A program made the translations under genes and the position numbers. Below are positions 37,148 through 64,000 of a stretch of DNA of 64,000 bases, one piece after another. The DNA comes from an uncultured Alphaproteobacteria bacterium (GTDB taxonomy: Bacteria > Pseudomonadota > Alphaproteobacteria > Rhizobiales > Xanthobacteraceae). The stretch's first letter is position 1. Each line of letters begins with the position of its first letter. The notes under the pieces were generated by a model, which was not told the DNA's origin, searched no databases, and was given only the letters and a program-made list of their open reading frames with translations. Location: contig CAVUKM010000015.1 of NCBI GenBank assembly GCA_963742085.1, positions 139,113-203,112 on the forward strand, written 5' to 3'.

Positions 37148-38083
37148 TCAGTCGCCGGTACCCTTCGGGAATACCCGGCTTGCGAGCACATCAGAGGCTT
37201 CCAGCGACATGGCGTCGTCGGCGGTCAGCACGCGATCGAGATCGGCAACAAGGCGGCTTGCCTGCCGCAGCCGCATCCGGTCCAGCGCATTGCGGATCGA
37301 GCGCGCGTTGGAGAACAGCGGCTGGGTCTTGCGCAGGCCGATGTAACGCACAAAGGCATCACGGGCGTCCGGGCTGAACTTGTAGTTCATGTCGCGCAGC
37401 ATCAAATCGGCGATGCGAAGCAGCTCATCCTCGCTATAGTCCGGAAAATCGATGTGATGCGCGATCCGCGAGCGGAAGCCAGGATTGCTGGCGAAGAATT
37501 TGTCCATCTGCGCGCCATAGCCGGCCAGGATCACCACCAGATCCTCGCGCTGCGATTCCATCACCTGCAGCAGTATCTCGATCGCCTCCTGTCCATAGTC
37601 GCGCTCGTTATCCGGGCGATGCAGATAGTACGCTTCATCGATGAACAGCACACCGCCCATGGCCTTCTTCAATATTTCTTTCGTCTTCGGTGCCGTGTGG
37701 CCGATATATTGTCCCACCAGTTCGTCTCGCGTCACCGATACCACCTGCCCGCGGCGCACGTAGCCGAGCCTGTGCAGGATGCTGGCGATCCGCAGCGCAA
37801 CGGTGGTCTTTCCGGTACCTGGATTGCCGGTAAACGACATGTGCAGCGTCGGCACGTCAGAAGTCAGGTTCATTCGCTTGCGGATACGCTCGATCAGCAG
37901 CAGCGACGCAATCTCGCGGATCCGCGTTTTCACCGGTCTCAACCCGATCAGTTCGCGATCGAGCTGATCGAGCACCTCGCCGATGCCGACCTCGTTGAAT
38001 TCGCGGCGCAGGTCAACCTGCACGTCAGCCTGCCCGGTTAGCGCCGTCTCGTCCAGGCTCGGCGCGGCAGCCGGCAGGCTCAT
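37148..38083 (-). CDS. cbbX: CbbX AAA+ RuBisCO activase
   Basis: [23 protein letters not shown] and FSNARSIRN; directly after cbbS. Confidence 0.95.
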
Positions 38084-38505
38084 GATGCACCGTAGCGCCG
38101 GCCCTCGGGCCGATCGGCGGCATAGGACGTTGTTGTGTAGCGGATTCGGCGGCCCGCGACCTCGTGCCGGTCGAGACGGAACCCCGGCTCGTCTTTCGGG
38201 CGGTTGACGATGAAGGACAGCCGCACCGATTCCCAGCCATGGCTGGAATCGAACGCCGACAACCGGATATAGCGGTCGCCATAAACCTTGCGGCATTCGT
38301 TCAGCTCCATCAGCACGCCTGCCGCATCACGGAGATCGAACATCGGCAATCCCCACATTTCCCAGAAATTGTTGCGGGGATGCGGGTCGTCGGTGAATTC
38401 GATGTTCACCGCCCAGCCATGGCCGAGGCAATACTGAACCTGGGCGGCAATCTGCTCGTCGGTGAGATCGGGGAGAAACGAAAAGCATCCTTGGGTAATG
38501 CGCAT
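38080..38505 (-). CDS. cbbS: RuBisCO small subunit (red type)
   Basis: [16 protein letters not shown]...[10 protein letters not shown]. Confidence 0.97.
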
Positions 38506-38519
38506 GATCTTGGATCTCC

Positions 38520-39980
38520 TTACATCGCGACGCTGGCGGTTGGGACGTAATCGGGCATGTCGGTGGATTCATAATTGAAGGTGACGTTCTTCCAGACCTC
38601 CAGCGCCGATTTCAGCGGCGTGCAGGTCTGCGCCGCCCTGGCGAGTATCTCCGGCCCTTCGTGGAGGTAATCGCGGCCCTCGTTACGGGCGAGGATTATC
38701 GCTTCCAGCGCTACCCGATTGGCGGTGGCGCCCGCCTGAATCCCCATGGGATGGCCGATGGTGCCGCCACCGAATTGCAGCACCACGTCTTCGCCGAGGT
38801 GATCGAGCAGCTGATGCATCTGGCCGGCGTGAATGCCGCCCGATGCCACCGGCATCAGCTTGTTGAGGCTTGCCCAGCTCTGGTCGAAGAACACGCCGTG
38901 CTCTAGCCTTGCCGGATTGAAATCCTCGCGACAGATGTCGTAGTAGCCGCGCGTCGTCGCCGGATCGCCCTCGAGTTTGCCGACCACGGTTCCGGCATGG
39001 ATGTGATCGACGCCCGCAAGCCGCATCCATTTCGCGATCACTCGGAACGAAACGCCATGGCTGCGCTGCCTTGTATAGGTTGAATGCCCTGCCCGGTGCA
39101 GGTGCAGGATCATGTCGTTGCGACGGGCCCATTTGGCCATCGACTGGATCGCGGTATAGCCGATCACGAGGTCGATCATGATGACGATCGAGCCGAGTTC
39201 CTTGGCGAATTCGGCCCGCTCGTACATGTCCTCCATGGTTCCGGCGGTGACGTTGAGATAGGTGCCCTTGATCTCGCCGGACGCCGCCTGGGCCTTGTTG
39301 ACGGCTTCCATGCAATACAAAAATCGCTCGCGCCAATGCATGAACGGCTGCGAGTTGATGTTCTCGTCGTCCTTGGTGAAGTCGAGTCCGCCCTTCAGCG
39401 CCTCGTAAACCACGCGGCCGTAATTGCGGCCGGACAGGCCGAGCTTCGGCTTGACGGTGGCGCCGAGCAGCGGGCGGCCGAACTTGTCCATGCGTTCGCG
39501 CTCGACCACGATGCCGGTGGCCGGCCCCTGGAACGTCTTGACGTAAGCCACGGGCAGCCGCATGTCCTCGAGCCGTAGCGCCTTCAGCGGCTTGAATCCG
39601 AACACGTTGCCGATGATCGATGCCGACAGGTTAGCGATCGATCCGCTCTCGAACAGGTCGAGGTCGTAGGCGATATAGGCGAAAAATTGCCCCGGCGAAT
39701 TCGGCACGGGATCGACGCGGTAGCACTTGGCGCGGTATTTTTCCGCCGCCGTCAAACGGTCGGTCCAGACCACTGTCCAGGTCGCGGTCGACGATTCCCC
39801 GGCCACAGCGGCAGAGGCCTCGATCGGATCCACGCCGTCCTGCGGCGTCACCCGGAACAGCGCGATGATGTCGGTCTCCTTGGGCTCGTAGTCGGGCTCC
39901 CAGTAACCCATCCGCTTGTATTCCATGACGCCGGATTTGTAGCGATCCTTGCCATGAAGTGTAATGGAGTGCTTGTTCAT
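38520..39980 (-). CDS. cbbL: RuBisCO large subunit, red-type form I (IC-like)
   Basis: GLDFTKDDE carbamylation motif, HLHRAGH, VVGKLEG and SGGIHAG; 486 aa. Confidence 0.98.
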
Positions 39981-40032
39981 AGTGGTCTCCCTCGGTTGGA
40001 CAGTCCGGCGCGGATCGTCGGGACTTCTCGTG

Positions 40033-61976: not shown

Positions 61977-61977
61977 G

Positions 61978-62715
61978 ATGCTCCGTCTTTTGTCCTTCGC
62001 CGTCTTTCTCGCGACCTGGTGGATTGCCGCGCTGTTCGCCGGCGGAGCGAAGCTGCCCGCTCCGCCCGCCGTGCTAGCGGCGATCGTTGTGGCGGCCGAA
62101 TCCGGCGCGCTGTTCGTCAATCTCGGCGTGACCCTGGCCCGCGTGGCCCTCTCCTTCACCTTGGCGATGACGCTGGGCACCGCGATCGGTTACCTGATGG
62201 GTCGGGTACGCCTTGCCGATCGACTGGGCGATCCCTGGCTCATATTGCTGCTCAACCTTCCGGCGCTCGTCGTCATCGTGCTCGCCTATATCTGGGCGGG
62301 ACTGACCGAGGTCGCGGCGATCGCGGCGATTGCCATCAACAAGCTGCCGACTGCCGTCGTGACGGTGCGCGAGGGAACCCGCGCGCTCGATCCATCGCTT
62401 GACGAAATGGCGAGGGTATTTGCTATTCCGCCCTGGAAAGCGTTCCGGCACGTCATATTGCCGCAACTGGCGCCCTACATCGCGGCTGCCGCGCGATCCG
62501 GTCTCTCCCTGGTATGGAAGATCGTGCTGGTTGCCGAATTGCTCGGACGCTCGAACGGCGTCGGCTTCGAGATCGGTGTCGCTTTCCAGCTCTTCGATAT
62601 CCCCCGCCTGCTCGCCTATTCGCTTACCTTCGTGGCGGTTGTGCTCGCGATCGAAACCGCGTTGGTTCAGCCGTTTGAAACCCGGCTATCGAGATGGCGC
62701 CCCCGTGCAGCTTGA
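61978..62715 (+). CDS. ABC permease (SsuC/TauC-like)
   Basis: GVTLARV, DEMARVF, AELLGRSNGVG. Confidence 0.88.
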   Translation: MLRLLSFAVFLATWWIAALFAGGAKLPAPPAVLAAIVVAAESGALFVNLGVTLARVALSFTLAMTLGTAIGYLMGRVRLADRLGDPWLILLLNLPALVVIVLAYIWAGLTEVAAIAAIAINKLPTAVVTVREGTRALDPSLDEMARVFAIPPWKAFRHVILPQLAPYIAAAARSGLSLVWKIVLVAELLGRSNGVGFEIGVAFQLFDIPRLLAYSLTFVAVVLAIETALVQPFETRLSRWRPRAA

Positions 62716-63433
62716 AGTCAACATCGCACGCAAAGCGTTTACGAACGTGGCGGGCGAGCGGCAAGACGTGCTCGTCGATTTCAATTTTGTGCTCGGCGCG
62801 GGAGAGGTCGGCGTCCTCGTCGGCCCGTCCGGCTGCGGCAAAAGCACATTGCTGAAGATCCTGGTCGGCCTCGACCATGACTATTTGGGTCGCGTTGAGC
62901 GTTCGGCAGATGCACGGATCGGCATGGTGTTTCAGGAACCCCGGCTCCTGCCATGGCGGTCGGTCGAGGAGAATGTGCGTCTTGCAGCGCCACAAGCGGA
63001 CGACGCAAAGCTTTCAATGCTGTTCGCCATTCTGGAATTGAACGCCCATCGCAACCATTTTCCCGGCGAATTGTCGCTCGGCCTTGCCCGGCGGGTCGCG
63101 CTTGCCCGGGCATTTGCGGTCGAGCCGGATCTTTTGATTCTCGACGAGCCGCTGGCCTCGCTGGACGACACCCTTGCAGTCCGCCTGCGCGACGAGATTG
63201 CCACACTGGTGGACAGCCGATCCATAACGACACTGCTTGTTACCCACAATGTCGATGACGCGATCCGCCTCGGTGACCGGGTATTTCTGCTGTCGCCGCG
63301 CCCGGCAAGGATTCTCGCCGAACTGCCAATTCGCACGCCGCGCAACGCGCGCGGCCAGGCCGAGATCGCCGCGATCAGGGCCGGCATTGAGCACTTGATC
63401 AACGGCGACCGCGCGAAGGAAGATGGCATATAG
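62705..63433 (+). CDS. ABC ATP-binding protein (SsuB/TauB-like)
   Basis: GPSGCGKS, VFQEPRLLPW, variant signature LSLGL, and ILDEP. Confidence 0.9.
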   Translation: MQLEVNIARKAFTNVAGERQDVLVDFNFVLGAGEVGVLVGPSGCGKSTLLKILVGLDHDYLGRVERSADARIGMVFQEPRLLPWRSVEENVRLAAPQADDAKLSMLFAILELNAHRNHFPGELSLGLARRVALARAFAVEPDLLILDEPLASLDDTLAVRLRDEIATLVDSRSITTLLVTHNVDDAIRLGDRVFLLSPRPARILAELPIRTPRNARGQAEIAAIRAGIEHLINGDRAKEDGI

Positions 63434-63479
63434 CGGCGCTTGCAGCGCATGCTAGAATGCGTTGGCGGAGGAGCTGGCG

Positions 63480-64000
63480 ATGAAGTGTTTTCTTGCAGGT
63501 GCGGCGCTCAGCCTCGGTCTCATTACCTTAACCGCAACGGCGCAGGATATGATGCGCGGCGTCGATCTTGCGTCGCCCGACATGGTTTCGGCTGAAATGA
63601 CTCGCGCCGAGGTCGTGACCGCGGTTGCGACGGCAACCCCCGCGCCCGCCGATTTCACTGGAAAGAGATTGTCCAACCTCGACCTGTCCGGGCTCGACCT
63701 CGCCCGCGTGATTTTTCGCGCAGCCCGGCTCAACAAGACGAAGTTGGCGGGCGCGAATCTCGACCATGCCGTCCTCGACCAGGCGTGGCTTCTCGAAGCG
63801 GATCTGACCGGTGCCAATTTGAGAGGTGCAAGCATATTCGCCGCGCAAATGGCCCGCGCCCATCTTGACGGTGCCGACCTCTCGAAGGCGCGTATTGCCG
63901 CCGACCTTACCGGCGCAAGCCTCGTCGGCGCCTCGATCGCCGACGCGCAGCTGGGCGCCGACATGCGCAACCAGTCGATGGGCCTCATGCGCGCGGTACT
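63480..64000 (+). CDS. Exported pentapeptide-repeat protein (partial; not in the ORF track)
   Basis: GGAGGAG RBS, signal peptide, then A(D/N)LxxA repeats such as ANLDHA, ADLTGANLRGA and ADLSKA; open to the window end. Confidence 0.85.
   Translation, partial: MKCFLAGAALSLGLITLTATAQDMMRGVDLASPDMVSAEMTRAEVVTAVATATPAPADFTGKRLSNLDLSGLDLARVIFRAARLNKTKLAGANLDHAVLDQAWLLEADLTGANLRGASIFAAQMARAHLDGADLSKARIAADLTGASLVGASIADAQLGADMRNQSMGLMRAV

Follow-up and report, generated by a model that had tools for sequence, protein, structure and literature searches.

We examined a 64,000-nucleotide stretch of contig CAVUKM010000015.1 (the window; C15:139,113-203,112 of assembly G000), from a genome of 5.64 Mb in 23 contigs (62.5% GC, 95% complete). 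The loci closest to it are those of Bradyrhizobium. In the right-hand part of the window a Calvin-Benson-Bassham (CBB) operon directly abuts a lanthanide/methanol-oxidation island, and cbbL and xoxF fall within one ~21-kb stretch. The gene order, as we would read it through and beyond the window, runs from the cbb cassette to a TonB receptor, fghA, a lut/ped ATP-binding cassette (ABC) system, a CXXCW protein, xoxJ, xoxF and SoxH/SoxYZ-like genes, and then to gfa-flhA-xoxG, a second xoxF and an AraC-type regulator. Genes were called from a listing of open reading frames (ORFs) and from family scans with NCBIfam/TIGRFAM and Pfam profiles. An earlier sequence-only reading had named xoxF/xoxJ, a lut/ped-like system, a TonB receptor and fghA beside cbbR-cbbFPTALSX, and all of these genes were recovered at the positions it had given them.

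The cassette spans 9.1 kb (window ~37,150-46,235; coordinates without a contig name are those of the window) and consists of cbbXSLATPF on the minus strand and a divergent cbbR. The first gene, cbbX (37148-38296), encodes a red-type RuBisCO activase (TIGR02880, 519.9 bits, cut-off 459), and translation probably begins downstream of the first codon of the ORF. It is followed by cbbS, the RuBisCO small subunit (38080-38505; PF00101, 1.3e-39), cbbL, the large subunit (38520-39980; NF003252, 794 bits), cbbA, a class II fructose-bisphosphate aldolase (40033-41118; TIGR01521, 607.8 bits), and the transketolase gene cbbT (41131-43194), which is interrupted by one in-frame TGA and is seen as two ORFs matching positions 3-310 and 339-649 of TIGR00232. 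The phosphoribulokinase gene cbbP (43191-44066; NF011997, 503 bits) and cbbF, a class 1 fructose-1,6-bisphosphatase (44082-45119; NF006780, 464 bits), complete the minus-strand genes. On the plus strand, divergent from cbbF, lies the LysR regulator gene cbbR (45183-46235), whose best NCBIfam match, NF045990, scores 343.8 bits and is under the 450 equivalog cut-off. CbbL is of the red-type form IC: 1BXN and 5NV3 are among the solved structures that it matches best, in keeping with a cbbX activase in the operon. The defining set of a red-type form IC operon (form IC cbbLS, cbbX and a divergent LysR-type cbbR) is thus all present. This cbbL is the sole RuBisCO of the genome (a single PF00016 match genome-wide). 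DNA resembling tkt and fba is also found at C12:401-407 kb and probably represents housekeeping copies.

Tail-to-tail with cbbR stands the TonB-dependent receptor gene (46333-48823, minus strand), recognized by TonB receptor families and PF00593 in two ORFs of different frames, because a +1 frameshift splits the gene. Its matches are to generic TonB families only; it is a candidate LutH-type receptor. The next genes lie on the plus strand: fghA, S-formylglutathione hydrolase (49130-49975; TIGR02821, 402 bits; PF00756), and the four PQQ-dehydrogenase-associated (PQQ, pyrroloquinoline quinone) ABC genes, all above cut-off, that make up a complete set for a lut/ped-type system. These encode a binding protein (50301-51587; TIGR03863, 484 bits), a YVTN beta-propeller (51594-52580; TIGR03866, 509 bits), an ATPase (52457-53395; TIGR03864, 347 bits) and a permease (53302-54240; TIGR03861, 408 bits). 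Three minus-strand genes follow: a CXXCW-motif protein (54892-55467; TIGR03865, 237 bits), the MoxJ-like periplasmic binding protein gene xoxJ (55464-56432; TIGR03871, 309 bits) and the first copy of xoxF, a lanthanide-type PQQ methanol dehydrogenase (56529-58448; TIGR03075, 779 bits, cut-off 480). The remainder of the window is on the plus strand and carries a quinoprotein-associated SoxH-like metallohydrolase (58599-59558; TIGR04559, 401 bits), a SoxYZ-like carrier (59549-60445; TIGR04557, 285 bits) and an Ssu/Tau-like ABC transporter with binding protein, permease and ATPase (60942-63433), whose position is conserved in relatives. A plus-strand ORF at 54018-54851 has no Pfam or NCBIfam match and is 65-71% identical to ORFs at the same position in relatives.

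The best solved relative of XoxF copy 1 is Methylorubrum extorquens XoxF1 (6OC5; 1065 bits), with MxaF at ~625-650 and PedH at ~370. As the mark of lanthanide dependence we used the extra coordinating aspartate two residues past the catalytic one (D-x-D). Aligned to 6OC5, the query reads DEWDYDG where XoxF1 reads DEWDFDG, and the motif is present as D-Y-D. By family and motif, copy 1 is a XoxF-type lanthanide-dependent methanol dehydrogenase, its activity being predicted. There is no xoxG next to it. Beyond the window, ~12 kb to the right of copy 1, there is a second xoxF (C15:209881-211749; L009 6769-8637), which is 99.7% identical to the first over 1,869 bp (window 56484-58352). It is accompanied by xoxG (TIGR03874), flhA, gfa and an AraC/FeaR-like regulator. 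With gfa (TIGR02820, 336 bits) and flhA (TIGR02818, 613 bits) at L009 4437-6156, ~4.4-6.2 kb past the window end, the glutathione-linked formaldehyde oxidation set of gfa, flhA (adhC) and fghA is complete. The xoxF pair is also found in the related genomes G032 (99.9% identity between copies) and G048 (99.8%). Since the copies are 99.7-99.9% alike within each of the three genomes and 90-92% alike between genomes, the pair fits an old duplication homogenised by gene conversion.

Seven genes of the PQQ-dehydrogenase family are encoded in the genome, both xoxF copies included, together with pqqE (C12:53811) and two formate dehydrogenase alpha subunits. The sequence-only reading had reported no serine-cycle or ribulose monophosphate (RuMP) genes in the window, and this holds. 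In the whole 95%-complete genome we found no Fae, MCH or Hps above cut-off, nor a malate thiokinase (mtkA), since there is a single ligase of the sucC type. With one RuBisCO and none of these enzymes, the CBB cycle is the only recognisable route of C1 assimilation as judged from the gene content. Form I coxL (1442 bits) and soxB (858 bits) are also present in the genome, and no NiFe hydrogenase was found in it.

The pathway these genes would make up is as follows. XoxF, with PQQ and a lanthanide, would oxidise methanol, giving formaldehyde, which Gfa, FlhA and FghA would convert to formate via glutathione adducts; the formate dehydrogenases would release CO2, and the single RuBisCO would fix it. 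A XoxF-glutathione-formate dehydrogenase-CBB route has been demonstrated in Bradyrhizobium diazoefficiens USDA 110, in Bradyrhizobium sp. strain USDA 3456 and also in Sinorhizobium meliloti 2011 by transcriptomics, enzyme assays and 13C labelling, and cbbLS is induced ~1,600-fold on methanol in a relative (PMC12628762). The earlier proposal that methanol is oxidised to CO2 and refixed by RuBisCO is therefore well supported by experiments in Bradyrhizobium and S. meliloti, and it had already been published: the biochemistry is known, and this locus adds none. From these relatives and the literature we infer that the pathway would operate in the present organism.

The locus is chromosomal. Its homologue in G032 sits on a contig of 2.08 Mb and that in strain TZ2 on a chromosome of 7.95 Mb. 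A megablast search with 23 kb of the locus against 72,556 plasmids returned nothing above ~81% identity, in single-gene pieces only, and we rejected a plasmid origin. Matches to Sinorhizobium DNA are likewise confined to single genes, at ~76-78% identity.

To the left of cbbX the picture changes at once. Window positions 1-37,147 are a strain-specific mosaic of insertion sequence (IS) and accessory DNA that starts immediately beside the cassette, and nothing collinear with them turns up in any of the six closest genomes, where they give scattered IS or single-gene matches only. The last element of the mosaic is an IS21-family element (33754-36159, plus strand; istA 33830-35380, istB 35344-36108; NF033546 and NF038214 above cut-off), ~1 kb from the cbbX stop. 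Its second copy at C21:4652-7058 is 99.9% identical, which suggests a recent, strain-specific insertion. Elsewhere the mosaic contains an IS91-family transposase (7914-9113), a DDE_5 transposase (25473-26828), sulfatases, an ArsP permease, and fragments of P450 and ring-hydroxylase genes. In G032 the left neighbour of cbbX corresponds to DNA that lies on contig C11 here, and there is no IS21 match at that junction.

Three features of this copy look like lesions. First, the in-frame TGA of cbbT (42181-42183, codon 338) is an arginine codon in a continuous gene in all seven orthologues compared. The remainder of cbbT still shares 84-90% identity with close orthologues, and 79% with the furthest of those compared, so that the TGA would either have arisen very recently or come from an error in sequencing. 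With an ordinary arginine codon in every orthologue, this is a simpler explanation than programmed fission of the gene or read-through. Second, compared with its closest orthologue, at locus L023, the receptor gene contains one extra nucleotide near 46,825, which puts its final ~160 residues, the C-terminal beta-barrel strands, out of frame. Third, between the receptor and fghA all 13 relatives compared (L023 and 12 others) carry a MoxY/MoxX-like two-component pair of a histidine kinase and a LuxR-type response regulator, represented in L023 by a MoxY-type kinase (13748-15154, minus strand; LapD_MoxY_N, HAMP, HisKA_3, HATPase_c) and its neighbour (15190-15897, plus strand; Response_reg, GerE). 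Comparison with relatives places a deletion scar at window ~48650-48805, where this pair, ~2.5 kb, is gone. Identity across the pair reaches 92-97% in four of the closest genomes and falls to 54-69% in those further away, and the present genome has no close paralogue of it (best matches 29.5% and 39% identity). The two single-base lesions may be assembly errors; the apparent loss of the pair is a larger structural difference. A further apparent frameshift was seen at G000:C11:57270-59975, where the counterpart of an ORF that in G032 encodes 1,110 aa is aligned across two frames; indels thus extend beyond the cbb-xox locus. A count of broken genes based on the stop-to-stop ORFs of relatives proved unusable, as spurious antisense ORFs in high-GC DNA inflate it.

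Should all three lesions be real, the locus would be a decaying remnant in which lanthanide uptake, its regulation and perhaps CBB flux are impaired. We give this explanation an appreciable chance, though one clearly short of even. In its favour are the stop and the frameshift themselves, the loss of a gene pair that every relative keeps, and the strain-specific mosaic with its IS21 element nearby. On the other side, the single-base lesions may be errors of assembly, the C11 gene at least also looks frameshifted, and all other genes of the block are full length. There is also tkt-like DNA on C12, probably a housekeeping transketolase, and cbb operons without cbbT occur in Tardiphaga and Rhodopseudomonas. 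Other TonB receptors or regulators may substitute for the missing functions. The apparent lesions caution against reading methylotrophic growth from gene presence alone in this genome.

The linkage of the two gene sets was followed by a DNA search over 30 relatives and by a cbbR-centred survey of 80 public loci with 10-kb flanks. The xox/lut island was found throughout the genus in the former, and the cbb operon and the island lie megabases apart in five complete genomes. We counted as informative the 49 surveyed loci with a cbbT-containing cassette and informative flanks, and as linked those with xox or glutathione-pathway genes within 10 kb. Linked loci number 19 of the 49 and come in three layouts: cbbR followed by the TonB receptor, as here (type A, 10 loci); cbbR followed by gfa-flhA-xoxG-xoxF-AraC (type B, 7 loci); and AraC followed by cbbX (type D, 2 loci). 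The other 30 lack any xox gene in their 10-kb flanks, and for 19 of the unlinked genomes a whole-genome search confirmed that the clusters are on separate contigs or megabases apart. By our own estimate, chance placement in a genome of 5-9 Mb would bring a cassette to within 10 kb of an island of ~35 kb in ~1% of cases, so that the observed linkage is in excess of chance. This excess suggests either a linkage that is old and has repeatedly been lost, or a bias toward co-localisation; both fit these data.

The closest genomes illustrate how the cassette changes place. G032 is collinear with the present genome from cbbX to window-equivalent ~74,242, both xoxF copies included, and G031 (L022) has the same cbbR-TonB junction and likewise the xoxF duplication. 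G047 and G048, equally close with GyrB 95-97% identical, retain the xox island with its two-component pair intact, and in G048 with both xoxF copies, and they carry cbb elsewhere, in a cassette that shares 89-90% identity with the one here. The flanks of that cassette are contiguous in our genome at C7:322,420-322,485, with 46-70 bp between them, which amounts to a clean empty site. The site occupied by the cassette in G062 is similarly empty here (C12:284.5-285.1 kb; C12:284485-285140), and G049, G053, G055, G060 and G068 each have further, different cassette flanks. Homology runs from ~37,150 to ~46,235 in every context, of which there are at least eight on the chromosome, and at its right end it always stops at ~46,235, with cbbR.

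Such constancy of the unit could be taken to mean that the cbb operon is a discrete relocatable cassette, repeatedly placed or retained beside the xox/lut island under selection for co-localisation, with no IS or att (attachment site) signature. We advance this only tentatively, as a possibility we would on the whole bet against. The opposite explanation gives the adjacency no functional meaning: cbb would be a general-purpose cassette for lithoautotrophy and redox, serving with CO, thiosulfate and formate, and its position next to xox would reflect neutral rearrangement in a recombination-prone region. The genome does encode form I coxL, soxB, two formate dehydrogenases and a single RuBisCO; the cassette is found in at least eight contexts among related genomes, and most Bradyrhizobium are unlinked, apparently including USDA 3456, which yet grows on methanol through the CBB cycle (PMC12628762). 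Against it stand the 19 of 49 linked loci in three layouts, where chance would give ~1%, and the strong induction of cbbLS by methanol in a relative (PMC12628762), and we regard it as rather unlikely.

To trace the history of the junction we compared a gyrB tree (46 rows) with a tree of the cbb cassette (43 rows). GyrB was chosen as the species marker since a search in every frame of assembly G000 turned up no conserved RpoB or RpoC motif; the assembly, 95% complete, may lack rpoBC. Both trees put the present genome together with G031, G032, G047 and G048 in a starred clade. Distant from it in both is a further group that has the cbbR-TonB junction (TZ2, LjRoot220 and the SZCCT strains; GyrB 89-90%), and nothing thus indicates a transfer of the joined block from one group to the other. 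The branching of the cbb tree mostly agrees with that of the gyrB tree, G062 being the exception. By gyrB, G062 is sister to the present clade (97*), while its cassette groups with those of more distant genomes (81% identity), which suggests that the cassette was replaced or horizontally acquired in that lineage. The linked or unlinked state changes at least eight times on the gyrB tree, and rooted parsimony for the ancestral state is indecisive owing to unresolved backbone nodes. The xox island and the cbb cassette have each been inherited largely vertically. Their junction is vertical in this strain's small clade and is not ancestral for the genus, where it is labile, the cassette sitting at many chromosomal sites. 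The alternative of ancestral synteny, which the sequence-only reading had raised against its own proposal, is accordingly borne out by survey and trees for the clade but not for Bradyrhizobium at large.

We looked for boundaries of a mobile element on both sides. The right side is free of IS, integrase and repeat sequences and is collinear with G032 as far as the AraC gene. When the 600-bp flanks of 19 contexts were compared all versus all by short blast, no att-like or repeat sequence emerged at the cassette ends, the TonB gene being the only element shared. Changes of site are seen for cbb alone, not for cbb and xox together. Thus neither two-sided bounds by IS, integrase, att or repeat sequences nor a unit recurring in unrelated contexts with a discordant phylogeny was found. 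A dispersed repeat of ~0.35-0.5 kb (72-84% identity) is present in more than 25 copies in G000, dozens across the genome (for example C15:298977-299302, C17:493407-493736 and C21:119609-119950, and in other loci L131 9445-9910 and L041 1291-1810). It may be a miniature inverted-repeat transposable element (MITE) or a conserved small gene, and one copy lies directly at the cbbX end in L041.

The proposal of the sequence-only reading that cbb and xox/lut form one co-inherited, possibly IS-mobilised module spreading lanthanide-dependent autotrophic methylotrophy could draw on the IS21 element with its near-identical twin beside cbbX and the IS-rich left flank, on a block of ~37 kb common to G032 with differing flanks on both sides, on an analogous 28.5-kb cluster on the S. 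meliloti megaplasmid pSymB (PMC12628762) and on the cbbR-TonB junction in two distant clades, but we consider it very improbable in view of the separate positional histories of cbb and xox (G047 and G048 keep the island and hold cbb elsewhere, with a clean empty site here), the congruent trees with the two junction clades far apart in both, an IS flank that is one-sided and strain-specific (G032 has no IS21 match at the junction, its left flank being DNA of C11 here), cassette ends without conserved sequence and the lack of any plasmid match above 81% identity.

In our view the stretch is, with good probability, a chromosomal XoxF-CBB locus of a soil Bradyrhizobium whose junction is vertical within the clade and labile in the genus, which does not constitute a self-contained mobile element and whose copy here looks partly degraded. 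Several points weigh against this reading. With form I coxL and soxB also present, cbb is not dedicated to methanol. The history rests on the single marker gyrB, quick searches and an unresolved backbone, so that how often linkage changed, and in which direction, can be given only approximately. With apparent damage to the two-component pair and to the cbbT and receptor genes, the pathway may be impaired or differently regulated in this organism. Finally, the collinearity between G000 and G032 ends on both sides, and a move of this larger block of ~37 kb in one of the two genomes is conceivable.

Set beside known systems, the locus is not unique in its arrangement. USDA 110 and USDA 3456 (Mineo, Jiang and Martinez-Gomez, Applied and Environmental Microbiology (AEM) 2025; PMC12628762) share with it a XoxF near XoxF1, xoxG, gfa/flhA/fghA, a lut-type ABC system, formate dehydrogenases and form IC cbbLS with cbbX, and in them, too, mtkA and hps are absent. 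The gene identifiers of USDA 3456 suggest that cbbL and xoxF are on different scaffolds (PMC12628762), whereas here they share one short stretch. Unlike both strains, the present genome has two near-identical xoxF genes, no local two-component pair, and the stop and frameshift lesions. The pSymB cluster of S. meliloti resembles our locus in that genes for methanol oxidation, formaldehyde detoxification, lanthanide uptake and the cbb cycle are contiguous (PMC12628762); it differs in lying on a megaplasmid together with pqq genes, while here the locus is chromosomal and pqqE is on a separate contig, C12.

The uptake genes are like those of the lut cluster of M. extorquens AM1 (PMC7391723), with an ABC binding protein, beta-propeller, ATPase and permease plus a TonB receptor. 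In contrast to that cluster, the receptor here is frameshifted and is recognized by generic TonB families only. The pedA1A2BC genes of Pseudomonas putida KT2440 are presumably the same PQQ-dehydrogenase-associated ABC set plus TonB receptor as found here. The most similar arrangement outside the immediate clade is that of TZ2, LjRoot220 and the SZCCT strains (L048, L062, L053, L061, L063, L065 and L067), which have the identical tail-to-tail cbbR-TonB junction, with fghA and the ped genes coming next. The xoxF-xoxG-flhA-gfa block of TZ2 likewise stands ~22 kb to the right, but it is inverted and contains a single xoxF. This distant clade keeps the two-component pair intact, while in our genome the pair is deleted.

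What the locus contributes is a genomic picture: a Calvin cassette that is linked to lanthanide and methanol genes in about two fifths of the surveyed loci, in a linkage that is labile and neither fixed nor plasmid-borne. Cultured strains in which the two are linked, such as TZ2 and LjRoot220, and their unlinked close relatives offer a natural comparison for the effect of proximity on the co-regulation of methanol oxidation and CO2 fixation.

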